Source: a virus (lineage: Duplodnaviria > Heunggongvirae > Uroviricota > Caudoviricetes). Taken from it: 33,385 bases of DNA. The stretch lies in the IMG/VR virus record IMGVR_UViG_2565956726_000001; one strand, written 5' to 3'. Below are positions 7,226-13,662 of this stretch, piece after piece. The notes beneath the pieces were generated by a model, which saw only the letters and a program-made list of their open reading frames with translations, was not told the origin of the DNA and made no database searches. A program made the position numbers and the translations under genes. Positions within the stretch are counted from its first letter, which is position 1; each line of letters starts with the position of its first letter.

Positions 7226-8156
7226 ATTAACCGGCTATGTATGGGATGGTTGCGCAGCGTCAGGCATGAAATTATCCAGCGTGGCAATTATGGCCCGCCT
7301 GGCTGATTTCAGTAATGACGAAGGTGTGTGCTGGCCATCGATTGAAACCATTGCCCGCCAGATTGGCGCGGGGATGAGTACAGTCAGAACGGCTATCGCA
7401 CGGCTGGAAGCAGAAGGCTGGTTAACGCGTAAGGCGCGTCGCCAGGGTAACCGCAATGCGTCGAATGTTTATCAGCTTAACGTTGCGAAGCTTCAGGCTG
7501 CGGCATTTTCTCAACTGTCAGATTCTGACCCGTCAAAATCTGACGCATCAAAATCTGACCCGTCAAAATTTGATGCGTCGAAATCTGGCAAAAAAGCGGG
7601 TTTTCACCCGTCAGAATCTGGCGGGGATCCGTCAGTAAAATCAAAACATGATCCGTCAGATAAAAAACCTTCTCGTCCGGACGCTTCGCAACCGGACACG
7701 CAGACGGCTGAACAGGATTTTTTAACTCGCCATCCTGATGCGGTTGTATTCAGCCCTAAAAAGCGCCAGTGGGGGACGCAGGATGATTTGACCTGCGCAC
7801 AGTGGCTCTGGAAAAAAATCATCGCCCTGTACGAGCAGGCTGCCGAATGTGACGGCGAGGTGGTTCGTCCCAAAGAACCGAACTGGACAGCCTGGGCAAA
7901 CGAAATTCGCCTGATGTGTGTGCAGGATGGTCGTACTCACAAACAAATCTGCGAGATGTACAGCCGCGTCAGCCGCGATCCGTTCTGGTGCCGTAACGTG
8001 CTCAGCCCGTCGAAGCTGCGGGAAAAATGGGATGAGCTTTCCCTGCGCTTATCGCCGTCCGTAAGCACGTACACCGAAAAACGCGAAGACGCGTACTTCA
8101 AAGCCAGTTACGACAACGTGGACTACAGCCAGATCCCGGCAGGATTCAGGGGGTAA
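7215..8156 (+). CDS. Replication initiator (lambda O-like; N-terminal winged-helix, internal iterons)
   Basis: 313 aa; N-terminal HTH region; iterons inside the gene are translated as repeated DPSKSDASKSDPSK; GAGGT SD. Confidence 0.8.
   Translation: MSTKLTGYVWDGCAASGMKLSSVAIMARLADFSNDEGVCWPSIETIARQIGAGMSTVRTAIARLEAEGWLTRKARRQGNRNASNVYQLNVAKLQAAAFSQLSDSDPSKSDASKSDPSKFDASKSGKKAGFHPSESGGDPSVKSKHDPSDKKPSRPDASQPDTQTAEQDFLTRHPDAVVFSPKKRQWGTQDDLTCAQWLWKKIIALYEQAAECDGEVVRPKEPNWTAWANEIRLMCVQDGRTHKQICEMYSRVSRDPFWCRNVLSPSKLREKWDELSLRLSPSVSTYTEKREDAYFKASYDNVDYSQIPAGFRG
7515..7650. repeat. Origin iterons (ori) within the O-like gene
   Basis: About six to seven ~15-16-bp direct repeats of CCGTCAAAATCTGAC-like units followed by an A-rich stretch. 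Confidence 0.6.
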
Positions 8157-8158
8157 TC

Positions 8159-8647
8159 ATGAGTCTTTTGAATGAAGTTCAGAAATTCATTGAAGCCCAT
8201 CCGGGGTGTACTTCCGGAGACATTGCGGATGCTTTTGCAGGCTACTCACGGCAGCGCGTTCTGCAGTCAGCAAGCAAGTTACGTCAGAGTGGGCGTGTGG
8301 CTCACCGTTGTGAAGGGGATACACGCAGACATTTCCCGCGCCTGACTGAGAGAGCGCAGGAGCCGGAACCACAACCAGTTCGTGAAACCAGACCTGCGCG
8401 CAATTTCTATGTCGGCACTAACGATCCACGGGTAATTTTGTGCCTGACCCGCCAGGCTGAAGAACTGGAGTCCAGGGGCTTATACCGTCGTGCTGCAACC
8501 GTGTGGATGGCGGCATTCCGTGAAAGCCACTCCCAACCAGAACGAAACAATTTTCTGGCGCGTCGTGAGCGGTGTTTACGGAAAAGCAGCAAGCGCGCTG
8601 CATCGGGTGAAGAGTGGTATCTGTCAGGGAATTACGTGGGGGCTTAA
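8159..8647 (+). CDS. PerC-family-like protein (C-terminal RAAxxW motif) with N-terminal HTH-like extension
   Basis: 162 aa; segment LESRGLYRRAATVWMAAF resembles PerC/Pch regulators; call is by recall. Confidence 0.45.
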   Translation: MSLLNEVQKFIEAHPGCTSGDIADAFAGYSRQRVLQSASKLRQSGRVAHRCEGDTRRHFPRLTERAQEPEPQPVRETRPARNFYVGTNDPRVILCLTRQAEELESRGLYRRAATVWMAAFRESHSQPERNNFLARRERCLRKSSKRAASGEEWYLSGNYVGA

Positions 8648-9300
8648 TGAGTAATAAATATTGCCAGGCGCTGGTGGAACTGCGGAACAAACCAGCCCAT
8701 GAACTGAAGGAAGTGGGCGATCAGTGGCGCACGCCGGACAACATTTTCTGGGGAATTAACACCCTGTTTGGCCCGTTTGTTCTGGATCTGTTCACTGACG
8801 GTGATAACACCAAATGTGCTGCGTATTACACGGCGGAAGACAACGCGCTGGCGCATGACTGGTCAGAACGTCTTGCGGAGCTTAAAGGTGCTGCCTTTGG
8901 TAATCCCCCATACAGCCGCGCCAGTCAGCATGAGGGGCAATACATCACAGGCATGCGTTACATCATGAAGCATGCCAGTGCCATGCGTGATAAAGGTGGG
9001 CGCTATGTTTTCCTGATCAAAGCTGCCACCAGCGAAGTGTGGTGGCCGGAAGATGCAGATCATATTGCTTTTATTCGCGGGCGTATTGGTTTTGAACTGC
9101 CTGCCTGGTTTATCCCGAAAGATGAGAAGCAGGTGCCGACAGGCGCTTTCTTCGCTGGTGCTATTGCTGTTTTCGACAAGACCTGGAAGGGACCGGCAAT
9201 CAGCTACATCGGGCGCGATGAACTTGAGGCATGTGGTGAGGCGTTTCTGGCGCAGGTTCGCCAGCAGGCGGAAAAACTGGTCAGGGAGATGGCGGCATGA
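8647..9300 (+). CDS. Phage DNA N6-adenine methyltransferase (Dam-type)
   Basis: NPPY catalytic motif (GNPPYS); ATG 8647 overlaps previous stop (TAATG). Confidence 0.8.
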   Translation: MSNKYCQALVELRNKPAHELKEVGDQWRTPDNIFWGINTLFGPFVLDLFTDGDNTKCAAYYTAEDNALAHDWSERLAELKGAAFGNPPYSRASQHEGQYITGMRYIMKHASAMRDKGGRYVFLIKAATSEVWWPEDADHIAFIRGRIGFELPAWFIPKDEKQVPTGAFFAGAIAVFDKTWKGPAISYIGRDELEACGEAFLAQVRQQAEKLVREMAA

Positions 9301-9623
9301 CGACGTTAACTCAATGCCAGCAGCAGGTGCTGGATATGCTGATTTCTTATCAGAAAGAACGTGGCTTCCCGCCAACCAATCAGGAGGTGGCAACCATGCT
9401 GGGATACCGTTCAGTGAATGCAGCGGTGGAGCATCTTCGCGCACTGGAGAAAAAAGGCGTCATCACGATAAAGCGTGGTGTGGCCCGGGGGATCACGCTT
9501 CATACCGTGGTGAAGGACGACGACAGCGAGGCGGTCGGGATTATCCGCTCACTGCTTGCCGGTGAGGAAAACGCCAGGCTGCGTGCAGCCCACTGGTTAC
9601 ATGAGAGGGGCCTGAAAGTATGA
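9297..9623 (+). CDS. LexA DNA-binding-domain-only protein (no S24 peptidase domain)
   Basis: 108 aa; aligns by eye with the LexA N-terminal wHTH (PPT..E.A..LG.RS.NAA.EHL.AL..KGVI); start overlaps the methyltransferase stop (ATGA). Confidence 0.6.
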   Translation: MTTLTQCQQQVLDMLISYQKERGFPPTNQEVATMLGYRSVNAAVEHLRALEKKGVITIKRGVARGITLHTVVKDDDSEAVGIIRSLLAGEENARLRAAHWLHERGLKV

Positions 9624-10015
9624 AGCTGATCCTACCTTTTCCGCCCAGCGTGAACACGTACTGGCGACACCCCAACAAAGGGGCGTTTGCTGGTAAGAGC
9701 CTGATAAGCGCGGCGGGGCGAAAATTCCAGAGCGCGGCGTGTGCAGCAATAGTTGAGCAGTTACGTCGTCTGCCGAAACCAACGTCGGCACCTGCTTCAG
9801 TGGAGATCGTGTTGTTTCCTCCGGATAACCGGATCCGCGATCTGGACAACTATAACAAGGCGCTGTTTGACGCCCTGACCCACGCGGGTGTGTGGGAAGA
9901 CGACAGTCAGGTGAAAAGAATGCTGGTGGAGTGGGGACCGGTTATCCCGGAGGGGAAGGTCGAGATCACTATCAGTAAGTACGAAAAAGCGAGTTGCAAA
10001 TTAGCAACTCGGTAA
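9620..10015 (+). CDS. rusA: RusA-type Holliday junction resolvase
   Basis: 131 aa; characteristic RDLDNYNKALFDALT acidic motif; ATGA overlap with upstream gene. Confidence 0.8.
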   Translation: MKLILPFPPSVNTYWRHPNKGAFAGKSLISAAGRKFQSAACAAIVEQLRRLPKPTSAPASVEIVLFPPDNRIRDLDNYNKALFDALTHAGVWEDDSQVKRMLVEWGPVIPEGKVEITISKYEKASCKLATR

Positions 10016-10060
10016 CGGAATTGAGCAACACCCTAAATTTGGGTATTACCTCGTTAAAGA

Positions 10061-10080
10061 TACTGTATTTATGAACAGTG
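10061..10080. promoter_or_regulatory. LexA (SOS) box TACTGTATTTATGAACAGTG
   Basis: CTGT-N8-ACAG with AT-rich spacer, close match to consensus TACTGTATATATATACAGTA; lies in the intergenic region upstream of the KilA-N gene. Confidence 0.6.
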
Positions 10081-10177
10081 TATCCTTGATAACTATTAAA
10101 AATCGCAGTAAGTTCATCCTGCATCAACGAAAAGGGAGTGCAGTCCCGCTCGTGGATAAAAATTTGTGGAGAAACCA

Positions 10178-10993
10178 ATGAATCAGTTGCTTGTAATTGA
10201 TGGCGTTTCTGTGCGCCAGTACTTCGAATCTAACTACTGTCTTAACGACCTTCAGAAAGCAGCTCTTCTTGCCGCTGGTGAGAATCGCTCCTCCCGTTCG
10301 CTGGAAGTTCACGAGTTTATGCGTCGTCCTGAAACGAAGGCTCTTGTGGAATTATTGGAAGAAGAAACTACGGGAGATTCCCGTAGTATTCCTGTCATCA
10401 CCATTCAGGGGCGCAATGGTGGGACGTATGTCTGTAAAGAGCTGGTCTATGCATATGCAATGTGGATCAGCCCGGCATTCAGCTTAAAAGTGATACGTAC
10501 TTTTGATGCGCTTCATAATTCATCACCAGAAGAAACCACATCCGACAAAATTAAATCCGGGGTCATTCTGCTTGAATCAGCAGCAAAGACTCTAAATCTG
10601 TCAAACTCCTCGAAACTTGGTGCATACCAGAAATTATCAAAGGTAGCTGGTCTTCCTGAACTTATGCCGATCTATGCCATTGATGCACCTGCTGATGCGC
10701 CAGATGGTTCAAGCCGCCCTACGCTGTCGCTGAGTGCACTGCTGAAGCAGTATGGTATCCGCCTGACGGCTAATCAGGCATATCACCAGATGGCGAAGCT
10801 GGGGATCGTTGAACAACGCGAACGATACAGCCGTACCGCGATTAACAACATCAAAAAATTCTGGTCGCTGACCGCGAAAGGCTGCATGTTCGGCAAGAAC
10901 ATCACCAGTCCTGCAAATCCGCGCGAGACGCAGCCGCATTTCTTCGAATCCCGATTCCCTGAGCTGTTAAAGCTGCTCGATACCGTTCATTGA
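10178..10993 (+). CDS. KilA-N domain protein (antirepressor-like)
   Basis: N-terminal KilA-N signature (GTYVCKELVYAYAMWISPAF); ATG 10178 with GGAG SD; the track ORF starts 12 nt earlier. Confidence 0.7.
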   Translation: MNQLLVIDGVSVRQYFESNYCLNDLQKAALLAAGENRSSRSLEVHEFMRRPETKALVELLEEETTGDSRSIPVITIQGRNGGTYVCKELVYAYAMWISPAFSLKVIRTFDALHNSSPEETTSDKIKSGVILLESAAKTLNLSNSSKLGAYQKLSKVAGLPELMPIYAIDAPADAPDGSSRPTLSLSALLKQYGIRLTANQAYHQMAKLGIVEQRERYSRTAINNIKKFWSLTAKGCMFGKNITSPANPRETQPHFFESRFPELLKLLDTVH

Positions 10994-10994
10994 G

Positions 10995-11990
10995 GTGACC
11001 GTGAGAGCACTACTGACCCCTGAAATTGCCCCGCGTATGGGGATCGTATTGTTCAGACCAGGTTCAGAGCTGATGCCCTTGTTTATGCAGGGGCGTGTCC
11101 TGCTGGAGCCTGAGCCGGAACGTTATTCATCTTTCGCCAGTGGTGCCGTTCCGGCGGCATCACAACCGCTGGCGGATGATCCTGCCGTTCGGGCCGTGTT
11201 CCGCAATGAGGCAGTGATCCGTCGTGCTGGTGGCGTGGAATGTCTTGAAAGCTGGTTACTTCGTGAAAAAGGCTGCCAGTGGCCTCATTCCGACTGGCAC
11301 AGCGAGAACATGACAACAATGCGACACGCTCCGGGCGCAATCCGTCTGTGCTGGCACTGCGATAACCAGCTGCGCGATCAGTTCACGGAACGGCTGGAAT
11401 CAATGGCAACGGATAACTGTGCCCGCTGGGTGTTGTCTGTTGTGCGTCGGGATCTCGGTTTTGATGACAGTCATGTTGTGACAATGCCGGAACTGTGCTG
11501 GTGGCTGATTCGTAATGATCTGGCGGATGCCTTACCGGAAAGTGCAGCCCGTAAGGCACTGAGATTACCGAAGCCTGTTGTGCCGTCTGTTACCCGGGAA
11601 AGTGACCTTGTGCCTTCGGTTCCTGCCACCAGCATCATCCAGGATAAGGCGAAAAAGGTGCTGGCGCTGAAAGTGGATCCGGAGTCGCCGGAGTCTTTTA
11701 TGTTACGCCCAAAACGTCACCGCTGGGTTAATGAAAAGTACACGCGCTGGGTTAAGACGCAGCCGTGCGCATGTTGTGGAAAACCTGCTGATGATCCCCA
11801 CCACCTGATAGGCCACGGTCAGGGGGGAATGGGTACAAAAGCGCATGACCTTTTTGTGTTGCCTTTGTGCAGAAAGCATCACGACGAGCTGCATGCGGAT
11901 ACCGTGGCATTTGAAGAGAAGTATGGCTCCCAGCTGGAGCTGATATTTCGTTTTATCGATCGCGCACTGGCGATTGGTGTGCTGGCCTGA
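10995..11990 (+). CDS. DUF968-type protein with C-terminal Cys/His cluster (possible HNH-like fold)
   Basis: 331-aa ORF; C-terminal [39 protein letters not shown]; start may be GTG 11001 rather than 10995. Confidence 0.6.
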
Positions 11991-12007
11991 TTTTGTGGAG
12001 AAAGTTA

Positions 12008-12391
12008 ATGCGTGATATTCAGATGGTTCTTGAACGTTGGGGAGCGTGGGCGGCTAATAATCATGAAGATGTGACCTGGTCGTCCATTGCCGCCGGTTTT
12101 AAGGGATTAATTCCTTCAAAAGTAAAATCTCGCCCGCAATGTTGTGACGATGACGCGATGATCATTTGCGGGTGCATGGCCCGTCTGAAAAAGAACAACA
12201 GCGATTTACACGATTTATTAGTAGATTATTATGTATGTGGTATGACATTCATGTCACTGGCAAGTAAGCATTGCTGCTCGGATGGTTATATCGGGAAAAG
12301 GTTACAGAAGGCTGAGGGCATAATTGAAGGGATGTTAATGGCATTAGATATCCGGTTAGATATGGATATCGTTGCTAATAATTCTAATTGA
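12008..12391 (+). CDS. quuD: Late-gene antiterminator Q (QuuD-type, about 127 aa)
   Basis: Sequence recalled as near-identical to DLP12 QuuD; ATG 12008 with GGAG SD. Confidence 0.8.
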
Positions 12392-12423
12392 TATGCAATT
12401 GTTTACTAAAAGTTATTAAAAAT

Positions 12424-12579: not shown

Positions 12580-13662
12580 TTAGAACTGATAAACCAGACC
12601 TACAGCGACGATGTCGTCGGTATCAATACCAGCTGTTTTGGTAAACTTACTATCGTCAATTAAGTTGATTTTGTAATCAACAAAAGTGGACATGTTTTTA
12701 TTAAAGTAGTAAGTAGCACCGACATCGACATACTTGACTAAGTCTCGGTCACCATGAACACCAAGGTCTTTACCTTTTGACTGAAGGTAAGCAACAGATG
12801 GACGCAGACCGAAGTCAAACTGATATTGTGCTACTGCTTCAAAGTTTTGTGCTTTGTTTGCAATATGGTTATTACCAAAAACGGTCATATTCTGAGTTTC
12901 AGAATATGTGGTAGCCAGATAGATATTGTTCGCATCATATTTCAGGCCTGCAGCCCATACTTCCGCATTTTTGCCGGAGGCATTGAATTTGCTCTTACCA
13001 TAGGCGACCTGACCGTCAGTGCGATCTGATTTAGCATAGGTTGCACCCACGCCGAATCCTTCATACTCATAAGTAGTGGAGAAACCGAAACCATCACCAT
13101 TGGCTTCAGTTACGTCAGTGCGGTCATTTTTACCCTGATACTGAGCAGCAAAGTTCAGGCCATCGACCAGACCAAAGAAGTCGTTGTTACGATAAGTTGC
13201 AACACCAGTAGTGCGACCAGTCATGAACACATCTGTTTGGGTCCAGGTATCACCACCGAATTCTGGCAGGACGTCAGTCCACGCACCGATGTCGTATGCT
13301 ACACCGTAGTTACGGCCGTAATCGATTGAGCCGTAATCACCAAATTTCAGGCCTGCAAATGCAAGACGGGTTTTGTCTTTGGAAGAACCTTGAGATTCAG
13401 CACGGTTGCCTTTGAATTCATATTCCCACTGACCGAAACCAGTCAGTTGATCGTTGATTTGGGTTTCACCTTTGAAGCCAAGACGGGCATAAGTAGTATC
13501 ACCATCATCTGCATCATTAGAGGAGAAGTAGTGCTTGGCATTAACTTTCCCGTATAGATCCAGCTTGTTACTGTCTTTATTATAAATTTCAGCTGCCTGA
13601 GCAGACATCGCCATCAGTACTGATGCAGCTACAGCAGAAATTGCCACTGTTAATTTTTTCAT
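12580..13662 (-). CDS. nmpC: Prophage-encoded general porin (OmpC/NmpC/Lc family) with signal peptide
   Basis: 360 aa; signal peptide ending AQA-AE; terminal aromatic residue (..VGLVYQF); located between Q and the lysis genes in reverse orientation, as in DLP12. Confidence 0.9.

Follow-up and report, generated by a model that had tools for sequence, protein, structure and literature searches.

YfdN of lambdoid prophages: a predicted winged helix joined to a PerC/ANR-type domain and encoded directly after the replication initiator

What might a protein related to the PerC virulence activators be doing in a lambdoid prophage, directly beside the genes for phage replication? The question is raised by an open reading frame in the viral DNA analysed here (33,385 nucleotides, IMG/VR record IMGVR_UViG_2565956726_000001, hereafter the window). 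From the letters of the window alone, the original prediction had proposed a PerC-family-like protein with an additional helix-turn-helix-like region, through which the prophage could influence virulence gene expression of its host. The features of the locus that bear on this are as follows.

7215..8156, + strand: replication initiator, with an N-terminal HTH_36 origin-binding domain and a C-terminal part like the C-terminal domain of lambda O (Pfam HTH_36, PHROG 391, BLASTP)
7524..7587, no strand assigned: 4.3 tandem copies of a 15-bp unit (TCTGACCCGTCAAAA) in the linker of the initiator gene (repeat analysis)
8159..8647, + strand: yfdN coding sequence, 162 amino acids plus stop (identity to K-12 YfdN and WP_000055021.1, PHROG 1324)
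8647..9300, + strand: phage N6-adenine DNA methyltransferase (Dam, PF05869; Pfam and annotation)

Identity of yfdN and its place in the early-right operon

The open reading frame at 8159-8647 is a real gene, the prophage gene yfdN. It begins with an ATG at 8159 and ends with a TAA stop at 8645-8647, and a Shine-Dalgarno-like AGGGGG is found at 8148-8153, within the last codons of the upstream gene. The protein is 98% identical to YfdN of Escherichia coli K-12 (b2357) across 162 amino acids and 100% identical to RefSeq WP_000055021.1, a 'PerC family transcriptional regulator'. A match to PHROG 1324 ('transcriptional activator') spans its full length (amino acids 1-161, E = 1.8e-78), and both this full-length similarity and the two-domain architecture described below place the protein in the YfdN orthologous group. 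The gene is already catalogued, the RefSeq/PGAP label for the identical gene being 'yfdN: PerC family transcriptional regulator', and it has been called 'the K12 unique PerC homologue' (PMC5931665). Phage copies from E. coli and Shigella (SfV orf40, SfII, SfIV, mEp460 and Stx2c phages) are 95-100% identical to the window protein, and Sb43 of Salmonella ST64B is 68% identical. No substantive difference separates the window protein from K-12 YfdN and these orthologues; in K-12 and many other records the annotated start lies two codons further upstream, giving 164 rather than 162 amino acids. In the literature yfdN is mentioned incidentally, in a glycogen overexpression screen, in lists of genes responding to NO or induced in urine and in a predicted interactome, and the phenotypes found there come from overexpression or transcriptome screens only. 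A PADLOC search matched YfdN to no defence system.

The prediction had also placed the gene beside replication genes, and indeed a lambda-O-like initiator adjoins it, ending at 8156 with its stop 2 nt ahead of the yfdN start. The initiator matches PHROG 391 'replication initiation O-like' (E = 1.2e-135) and, by BLASTP, lambda O itself (E = 6e-26). To judge from the repeat analysis, the 15-bp repeats at 7524..7587 are probably origin iterons; they are placed in the initiator gene much as the ori iterons of lambda are placed inside gene O. At the other end of yfdN, its stop and the ATG of the methyltransferase gene share one base (TAATG), an overlap that suggests translational coupling of the two genes. 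The yfdN gene lies in the early-right operon, downstream of repressor-, cro- and cII-like genes, and no promoter-like site was found between the initiator and yfdN; the gene should therefore be silent in an intact lysogen until induction. Gene order in K-12 is alike, with yfdN set between an initiator remnant (yfdO) and a methyltransferase remnant (yfdM), but the K-12 copy resides in the decayed cryptic prophage CPS-53, which is without a repressor region, whilst the window copy resides in an apparently complete lambdoid prophage.

Predicted architecture of YfdN

The predicted layout of YfdN is a winged helix-turn-helix (wHTH) followed by a disordered linker, a three-helix domain and a conserved disordered tail.

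8159..8338, + strand: N-terminal winged helix-turn-helix domain, amino acids 1-60, presumed DNA-binding module (AlphaFold2, Foldseek)
8339..8425, + strand: Pro/Glu-rich low-complexity linker, amino acids 61-89, predicted to be disordered (pLDDT, alignments)
8426..8605, + strand: PerC/ANR-type three-helix domain, amino acids 90-149 (Pfam PF06069, hhalign, AlphaFold2, Foldseek)
8615..8641, + strand: C-terminal tail motif W-Y-L-S-G-N-Y-V-G, amino acids 153-161 (alignments, pLDDT <50)

The helix-turn-helix-like region that had been proposed for the N-terminal half is borne out by the AlphaFold2 model, in which amino acids 1-60 adopt a winged-helix fold of H-H-H-E-E topology (H3-13, H19-25, H31-44, E47-52, E55-60; pLDDT 81-91). 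Foldseek aligned this domain with the winged helices of SmtB (ArsR/SmtB), MepR (MarR), BlaI/MecI and PerR at an rmsd of 1.7-3 Å over 55-68 columns and a probability of 1.0, all at E >0.001. Sequence matches of the wHTH are weak: PHROG 1687 (MarR) at E = 8.4e-5, BilQ at 17 bits versus 125 and, in YfdN homologues, Penicillinase_R at E of about 0.06.

The claim of an RAAxxW signature of PerC/Pch type in the C-terminal half has also held up. The motif is present as RAATVW (R111-A112-A113-T114-V115-W116, nt 8489-8506) inside LESRGLYRRAATVW, and the longer core signature A-x-x-L-E-x-x-G-L-Y-R-R-A-A-x-x-W ... R ... R-R-x-x-C-L is present as LESRGLYRRAATVW ... ERNNFLARRERCL, its invariant columns being common to PchA, PchD and PchE in the alignment. 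The Pfam profile search that had been proposed as a check gave a significant match to PerC (PF06069) at amino acids 98-149 (nt 8450-8605), with 36.2 bits against a gathering score of 22.6 bits (E = 7.5e-9). Alignment of the YfdN family with a PchA/PchD/PchE-type alignment by hhalign gave 98.9% probability (E = 3.4e-17), and BLASTP found 40% identity to PchE over 52 amino acids and 41% to a 104-amino-acid, group-1-type Pch over 44. Homology links the three-helix domain with the N-terminal core common to PerC/Pch activators, a stretch of about 50 residues shared by YfdN, PerC (encoded on pEAF of EPEC) and Pch (encoded in EHEC prophages), all of them on mobile elements. There is a likeness of position too, since PchE in Sp7 directly follows replication genes (primase, SSB) as YfdN follows the initiator. 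The likeness ends with the core, however: YfdN covers positions 5-56 of the 90 in the PerC profile and the second conserved half is absent, whereas PchA and PchE match positions 1-89 with 149-153 bits, and in the alignment the second half of Pch (...E-x-x-x-A-x-x-x-x-x-x-M-G...) is without counterpart in YfdN. Distant two-domain YfdN homologues score 21.9-34 bits on the same profile, one of them slightly under threshold. Pch proteins are single-domain (PchA 104, PchD 89 and PchE 90 amino acids), and it is YfdN that has the N-terminal wHTH, the linker and a C-terminal tail motif of its own.

AlphaFold2 models the three-helix domain with pLDDT >90, and in the model its fold is the same as that of ANR (AraC negative regulator) proteins, a family that includes Aar. 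Its best Foldseek neighbour is a 60-amino-acid phage 'ANR family transcriptional regulator', itself a predicted structure, at an rmsd of 0.6 Å over 56 columns and a TM score (target) of 0.91; the small size of the domain keeps E at only 0.08. The ANR model NF033650 gives YfdN 23.6 bits, under the cut-off of 32. The PerC and ANR profiles overlap, one protein scoring 72 bits with PerC and 45 bits, over that cut-off, with the ANR model. PerC/Pch and ANR proteins have one small helical module in common, which in YfdN is fused to a winged helix. Solved structures offer no informative homologue: a search of all PDB chains by sequence with the YfdN family profile gave no match at E up to 10, and the C-domain by itself, compared with the PDB by Foldseek, matched nothing but generic three-helix structures of TPR/MIT type, each at E >0.6.

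The two remaining segments are both predicted to be disordered and differ sharply in conservation. Amino acids 63-82 of the linker have pLDDT <50, its length differs between homologues and its alignment columns are gapped and unconserved. The tail likewise has pLDDT <50, but homologues as distant as about 25% identity keep its motif in the form W/C-x-L-A/S-G-x-Y/F-x-G, which is absent from PchA, PchD and PchE. An origin of this conservation in the overlapping downstream gene was considered and rejected, because the overlap amounts to just 1-4 nt, the genes that follow are not related to one another and synonymous variation is seen in the motif codons. The tail is probably a short peptide motif for partner binding, and the Gly codons at its end may also provide the ribosome-binding site for the next gene.

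Distribution of YfdN and survey of related loci

Present in 2668 of the 5426 complete E. coli genomes (approximately 49%), K-12 included, yfdN is among the commonest prophage genes of this species, and it is also found in Shigella and Salmonella phages and in Stx2c/Stx2a-converting phages of O157. Homologues with both domains, the most distant at about 25% identity, have kept wHTH, PerC core and tail motif alike, which indicates purifying selection on the whole architecture. A gene carried by about half of all E. coli is what would be expected of an ordinary accessory phage regulator, and this is probably what YfdN is; a dedicated virulence switch is unlikely.

A survey of 137 related loci found the YfdN-like gene directly after a replication initiator of lambda-O type in 128, usually with an ATGA overlap; for the other nine no upstream ORF was obtained. 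The replication modules concerned are without a helicase loader, and in the window, in K-12 and in the survey alike the YfdN slot lies between the initiator and methyltransferase, LexA-DNA-binding-domain or RusA genes of the lambdoid early-right operon. The surveyed initiators comprise four N-terminal and three C-terminal types (C1-C3), and the YfdN proteins fall into five clades (Y1-Y5), with identities down to 27%. Co-variation of YfdN clade and initiator C-terminal domain was considered as evidence of an interaction and set aside: the association is coarse, with Y2-Y5 paired with C2 and Y1 paired with both C1 and C3, two unrelated types, and phages that have no YfdN share the conserved tail (..VDY..IP.GFRG) of the initiators. 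Initiators of the same family are found where YfdN is lacking, in Klebsiella phage 1 LV-2017 (initiator 73% identical), in Citrobacter rodentium phage phiNP and in the plaque-forming phage LLS, although the K-12 host on which LLS was grown has its own yfdN copy in CPS-53 and could supply YfdN in trans; in Yersinia phage YeP3 an unrelated ORF occupies the YfdN slot. YfdN is therefore accessory, and these comparisons indicate that it is not an obligatory replication protein.

Possible functions of YfdN

The explanation that we tentatively favour, and that may well prove right, is that yfdN belongs to the early-right (replication/nin) operon as an accessory gene and that its product is a DNA-tethered transcription modulator of PerC/ANR type, with an anti-silencing or anti-activation function. 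YfdN would be made only once this operon is derepressed, that is upon induction, upon infection or, as in CPS-53, where the prophage has decayed and its repressor is gone. The winged helix would tether the protein to specific DNA sites, whilst the PerC/ANR-type domain, perhaps together with the tail peptide, would contact a regulatory protein of the host or the phage. Precedent suggests two kinds of candidate partner: H-NS-family nucleoid proteins, which Pch removes from promoters and Aar binds, and the AraC/XylS-type activators targeted by ANR proteins. The result would be altered transcription of silenced or activator-dependent genes. Pch has been shown to relieve silencing by H-NS, StpA and Hha at LEE1 (PMC4764244), and Aar, the ANR protein of EAEC, binds H-NS directly and modulates silencing; ANR proteins act on H-NS-dependent silencing, as Pch does (PMC5570504). 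According to an unpublished observation mentioned in PMC4764244, PchA did not co-precipitate H-NS, and the PerC core may thus not touch H-NS directly. The fusion in YfdN thus suggests a protein that would be tethered to DNA and would modulate H-NS or an activator whilst the prophage is being induced.

The original prediction went further and raised the possibility that YfdN works as PerC/Pch do, activating the ler (LEE1) promoter and letting the prophage modulate attaching-effacing virulence. PerC and PchABC do activate LEE1 (PMC5931665; PMC4764244), YfdN has the core signature of this family, Stx-converting phages of O157 carry it, and, to be on the safe side, authors studying ler deleted yfdN in the K-12 strain that carried their reporter (PMC5931665). 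The activity of PerC and PchABC on ler has been shown by experiment, however, whilst the literature searched contains no test of YfdN with a ler reporter. Membership of the family does not predict activation, since even the full-length PchD and PchE barely affect ler (PMC5931665) and a PerC-like protein of a PICI represses LEE1 (PMC11773190). The half-profile match and the two domains in 162 amino acids, as against one in the 89-104 of Pch, tell against equivalence, as does control of the operon by a repressor, and the spread of yfdN through K-12 and through Shigella and Salmonella phages makes a LEE-specific role unlikely. Nothing points to a dedicated LEE activator, this part of the prediction is unsupported, and we regard it as very unlikely to be correct; a PerC-domain match in a prophage is not to be read as 'LEE activator'. 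A negative counterpart has also to be weighed, in which YfdN would be an ANR-like anti-activator that sequesters an AraC/XylS-type activator or H-NS purely by protein-protein binding, with net repression as the outcome. The best structural neighbour of the C-domain is an ANR-family protein, the ANR model gives a hit to YfdN, if a sub-threshold one, the PerC and ANR models cross-match, Aar is reported to bind AggR and H-NS (PMC5570504; PMC10148876), and the PICI protein that represses LEE1, EcCIMP1_025, is annotated as PerC-like but was proposed by its authors to be ANR-like in nature (PMC11773190). ANR proteins, however, are small (the NCBIfam profile has 54 positions), stand-alone and single-domain, with no DNA-binding domain, whereas in YfdN the core is fused to a domain of DNA-binding type and followed by a conserved tail; its score with the ANR model is sub-threshold, and no cognate AraC-type gene lies near yfdN. 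Pure sequestration of this kind appears unlikely.

The strict position after replication initiators could instead indicate a replication-linked role, in which YfdN fills the place of lambda P as an adaptor that helps an O-type initiator to recruit DnaB or DnaB-DnaC in loader-less lambdoid modules. Like lambda P, YfdN is encoded directly after an O-type initiator and translationally coupled to it, and this place is held across initiator types and all five clades. The C-terminal domain of lambda O is the part that binds P, and that of the window initiator resembles it. No lambda P homologue was found by tblastn in the window or in approximately 150 fetched loci, PGAP annotates neither helicase nor loader in the identical prophage, and the conserved disordered tail could serve as a docking peptide. 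Among 314 lambdoid phages, 34 have been reported to possess the O gene only, and their replication 'is not yet understood' (PMC12315714). A relationship to lambda P was nonetheless rejected: YfdN differs from it in size and predicted fold, and neither sequences nor profiles show any similarity (hhalign probability 0.07%). A wHTH together with a PerC/ANR domain is typical of regulators, no strict co-variation with the initiator is seen, and the comparison with LLS, LV-2017, phiNP and YeP3 argues that YfdN is dispensable to this initiator family. Such an adaptor role is distinctly unlikely, and the link of YfdN with loader-less modules is probably just positional. There is a slim chance of something broader, that YfdN-like proteins are an unrecognised second component of 'O-only' modules: the wHTH would be placed at the origin or close to it, and the helical bundle and W-x-L-A/S-G-x-Y-x-G tail would bridge the initiator to DnaB or DnaB-DnaC, or else H-NS would be cleared off the AT-rich origin for transcriptional activation of ori, with YfdN-less relatives using copies from the host or a resident prophage, or recombination-dependent replication. 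The neighbour on the other side invites a similar thought, namely that YfdN is dedicated to controlling or assisting the adjoining DNA methyltransferase, like the C-proteins of restriction-modification systems. A DNA methyltransferase follows in about 112 of the 129 loci with a readable downstream gene, drawn from at least four families (PF05869 Dam-type, D12-class Dam, MT-A70-like and C5-cytosine/Dam fusions), and the junctions usually overlap. We consider this highly improbable, however: in 16 loci a LexA-DNA-binding-domain protein directly follows YfdN and there is no methyltransferase, whilst in LLS, phiNP and LV-2017 the initiator is followed by a methyltransferase without YfdN, so that the two genes assort independently within a fixed gene order.

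The yfdN gene and its protein

The yfdN gene is already known and annotated, and it is very common. A search of 5426 complete E. coli genomes matched 2668 of them, for the most part at 95–99% identity, and identical DNA carries the RefSeq label ‘yfdN: PerC family transcriptional regulator’. It lies in the window amongst the following features:

7215-8156, + strand: replication initiator, with an HTH_36 N-terminal domain and a C-terminal domain homologous to that of lambda O
7524-7587: candidate iterons, 4.3 tandem copies of the 15-bp unit TCTGACCCGTCAAAA
8109-8153: extreme C-terminal tail of the initiator, YDNVDYSQIPAGFRG (aa 299-313)
8159-8647, + strand: yfdN coding sequence, 162 aa, from ORF reading (ATG at 8159, TAA stop at 8645-8647)
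8647-9300, + strand: Dam methyltransferase
9297-9623: 108-aa protein comprising a LexA-type DNA-binding domain only, without the protease domain (PF01726, 69 bits)
12580-13662, - strand: OmpC-like porin (PGAP ‘porin OmpC’ in the identical prophage)

The product is 98% identical to K-12 YfdN (b2357) of the cryptic prophage CPS-53 and 100% identical to PhiR49_1 YfdN; the same protein is found in SfV (orf40), SfII, SfIV, mEp460 and several Stx2c/Stx2a-converting phages, and Sb43 of Salmonella ST64B shares 68% identity with it. It matches PHROG 1324 (‘transcriptional activator’) over its full length (E 1.8e-78). The two-domain family is small, with only 100 matches at E < 0.001 among 1.84 billion representative proteins, and is enterobacterial and phage-borne as far as the contexts show. 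Fusions predicted in public databases (YfdN–Dam, YfdN–RusA and initiator N-terminus–YfdN C-terminus; proteins P0020, P0021, P0121, P0033 and P0034) are probably frameshifts or deletions at 1–4-nt gene overlaps, not real architectures. One study, which terms yfdN ‘the K12 unique PerC homologue’, took the precaution of deleting the gene in its ler::lacZ reporter strain (PMC5931665); no direct functional test was found in the literature, the remaining mentions being incidental screen entries.

An AlphaFold2 model built with an 18-sequence alignment bears out the extra HTH-like N-terminal half of the original prediction: residues 1-60 form a winged helix of three helices and a β-hairpin (pLDDT about 90), and residues 90-149 a bundle of three helices, again with confidence (pLDDT above 90). 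Disorder is predicted for the Pro/Glu-rich linker between them (aa 63-82) and for the tail (aa 152-162). The modelled N-domain fits the DNA-binding domains of ArsR/SmtB, MarR, BlaI/MecI and PerR at about 2 Å over about 60 residues, whilst the sequence gives no more than weak hints of membership of any named winged-helix family. A PDB search with the family profile returned nothing, and Foldseek of the C-domain, which was additionally modelled alone, gave generic TPR/MIT-like matches only, all with E above 0.6, and no informative solved relative. The tail carries the motif W-Y-L-S-G-N-Y-V-G, which homologues sharing as little as about 25% identity retain in the form W/C-x-L-A/S-G-x-Y/F-x-G and which is also present in some short proteins that have no winged helix. 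Since its codons vary synonymously and the genes downstream are unrelated, this conservation acts at the protein level.

Relationship to PerC/Pch and ANR proteins

Assignment to the PerC family, originally made from an RAAxxW signature, proved correct. The string is present as R111-A112-A113-T114-V115-W116, inside LESRGLYRRAATVW, and Pfam PF06069 (PerC) matches significantly at 36.2 bits (gathering score 22.6; E 7.5e-9). Profile–profile comparison of 28 YfdN-type with six PerC/Pch-type sequences gave 98.9% probability (E 3.4e-17). In pairwise BLASTP, 52 aa align with PchE of O157 Sakai at 40% identity and 44 aa with a group-1-type Pch of 104 aa at 41%. However, whilst PchA and PchE span all 90 positions of the Pfam profile and score about 150 bits, the match of YfdN and its two-domain relatives is confined to positions 5 to about 56, and the alignment shows nothing in YfdN that corresponds to the conserved second half of PerC/Pch. 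PchA-type proteins (104 aa), PchD (89 aa) and PchE (90 aa) are also single-domain, unlike the two-domain YfdN. By sequence, YfdN is a Pfam-level PerC member through its core yet of distinct architecture and subfamily, because only the core half is matched, the second half is missing and it has a tail motif of its own.

The closest predicted viral structures to the C-domain are 60-aa proteins, one of which, annotated ‘ANR family transcriptional regulator’, superposes at 0.6 Å rmsd with a TM(target) of 0.91, both structures being predicted. The NCBIfam ANR model scores 23.6 bits on YfdN, below its cut-off of 32, and a short PerC-type protein scores 72 bits on Pfam PerC and 45 bits on the ANR model. 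Structural neighbour and cross-matching profiles thus agree, and PerC/Pch and ANR proteins therefore have one small helical module in common, a link also remarked on by the authors of PMC11773190.

Position in the early operon and after the initiator

The window is a lambdoid prophage. An identical copy reads, in order, integrase beside tRNA-Arg, yfdT–yfdP, a LexA-type repressor, a cro-like gene, YmfL (CII-like), DUF4222, initiator, yfdN, Dam methyltransferase, the LexA-DNA-binding-domain protein, RusA, KilA-N, DUF968, Q, the OmpC-like porin and then lysis and structural genes. The location beside replication genes was rightly called, the upstream neighbour being the initiator, whose C-domain matches that of lambda O at E 6e-26 and 31–39% identity. 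No promoter-like site was seen between initiator and yfdN, which places yfdN in the repressor-controlled early-right operon. A purine-rich AGGGGG lies 5 nt 5' of its start, the final codons of the initiator tail doubling as ribosome-binding site, and its stop overlaps the next ATG by one base (TAATG).

A survey of 137 loci with YfdN-like genes (five clades, identity down to 27%) found the gene directly 3' of a replication initiator in 128, usually through an ATGA overlap; the others yielded no upstream ORF. Among these initiators the N-terminal part comes in four alternative types and the C-terminal part in three. Where the gene 3' of YfdN was readable (129 loci), it encodes a methyltransferase, of at least four families, in about 112, and the LexA-DNA-binding-domain protein in 16. 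The families are PF05869 Dam-type (some with long C-terminal extensions), D12-class Dam, MT-A70-like, and C5-cytosine methyltransferase fused to Dam; equivalents of the variable slot at 8647-9300 occur in related loci L084, L085, L131, L143, L144 and L145. The 108-aa LexA-type gene is kept between methyltransferase and RusA in most related loci with ORFs read. The porin gene, which is flanked by the Q antiterminator gene and the lysis genes and lies on the opposite strand, resembles a moron. A consensus scan of 5500-10500 found 16 terminator-like hairpins (4.8 ± 2.7 from shuffles), 12 of them on the - strand, antisense to the early-right operon.

Elsewhere, pchE of O157 Sakai Sp7 (L003:31772-32044), in a small capsid-encoding element, lies directly 3' of primase and SSB genes, so another PerC-type gene adjoins replication genes; pchD (SpLE1, L146:39877-40146) is downstream of ibrA/ibrB-like genes.

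Regulation or replication

A regulatory role is favoured, at somewhat under an even chance. Derepression of the early-right operon would yield YfdN, the winged helix would bind DNA, and transcription would change through contact of the PerC/ANR-type bundle, perhaps together with the tail peptide, with a nucleoid or regulatory protein. The direction is not predictable because family members variously activate, repress or are nearly inert: PerC and PchABC activate, PchD and PchE have next to no effect on ler (PMC5931665), curli and adhesion are repressed by PchE, and LEE1 by EcCIMP1_025 (PMC11773190). There are two precedents for such a mechanism: Pch lifts H-NS/StpA/Hha silencing at LEE1, direct Pch–H-NS contact not being detected (PMC4764244), and direct binding to H-NS and to AraC-type activators is described for the ANR protein Aar (PMC5570504). 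Purely ANR-like sequestration by YfdN is unlikely. There is no support for reading the family assignment as control of LEE virulence, and LEE activation is judged very improbable; control of the neighbouring methyltransferase is more doubtful still.

The one lead that goes beyond the trivial is that YfdN strictly follows O-type initiators in replication modules that have no loader. The early region (1-12400) has an O-type initiator only, with no P, DnaC-like or DnaB-like gene, and a lambda P homologue is absent from the window and every surveyed locus. The module is of the O-only class, which PMC12315714 counts in 34 of its 314 lambdoid phages and whose mode of replication it calls ‘not yet understood’. 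YfdN could be the missing partner, in the slot held in lambda by the helicase loader P, but this is a slim prospect, a little below sequestration. In the plaque-forming phage LLS, of the same initiator family, O is followed directly by a methyltransferase, although LLS was grown on K-12, itself a yfdN carrier. Klebsiella phage 1 LV-2017 (initiator 73% identical over its full length) and C. rodentium phage phiNP likewise pass straight from O to methyltransferase, and in Yersinia phage YeP3 an unrelated 156-aa ORF fills the slot. YfdN and lambda P show no similarity, the main YfdN clade occurs with two unrelated initiator C-domains, and the conserved initiator tail (..VDY..IP.GFRG) is present also without YfdN. 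The slot after O thus behaves as a variable accessory position, and YfdN is probably not an obligate replication component, though it may facilitate replication.

The 15-bp repeats fall in the part of the initiator gene encoding a Ser/Asp/Lys-rich linker and, by analogy with lambda, where they are similarly positioned, are probably origin iterons. The initiator tail, which may be a docking peptide, is kept across initiators with unrelated main C-terminal domains (C1, C2 and C3), and in the YfdN-less LLS and Klebsiella phage 1 LV-2017.
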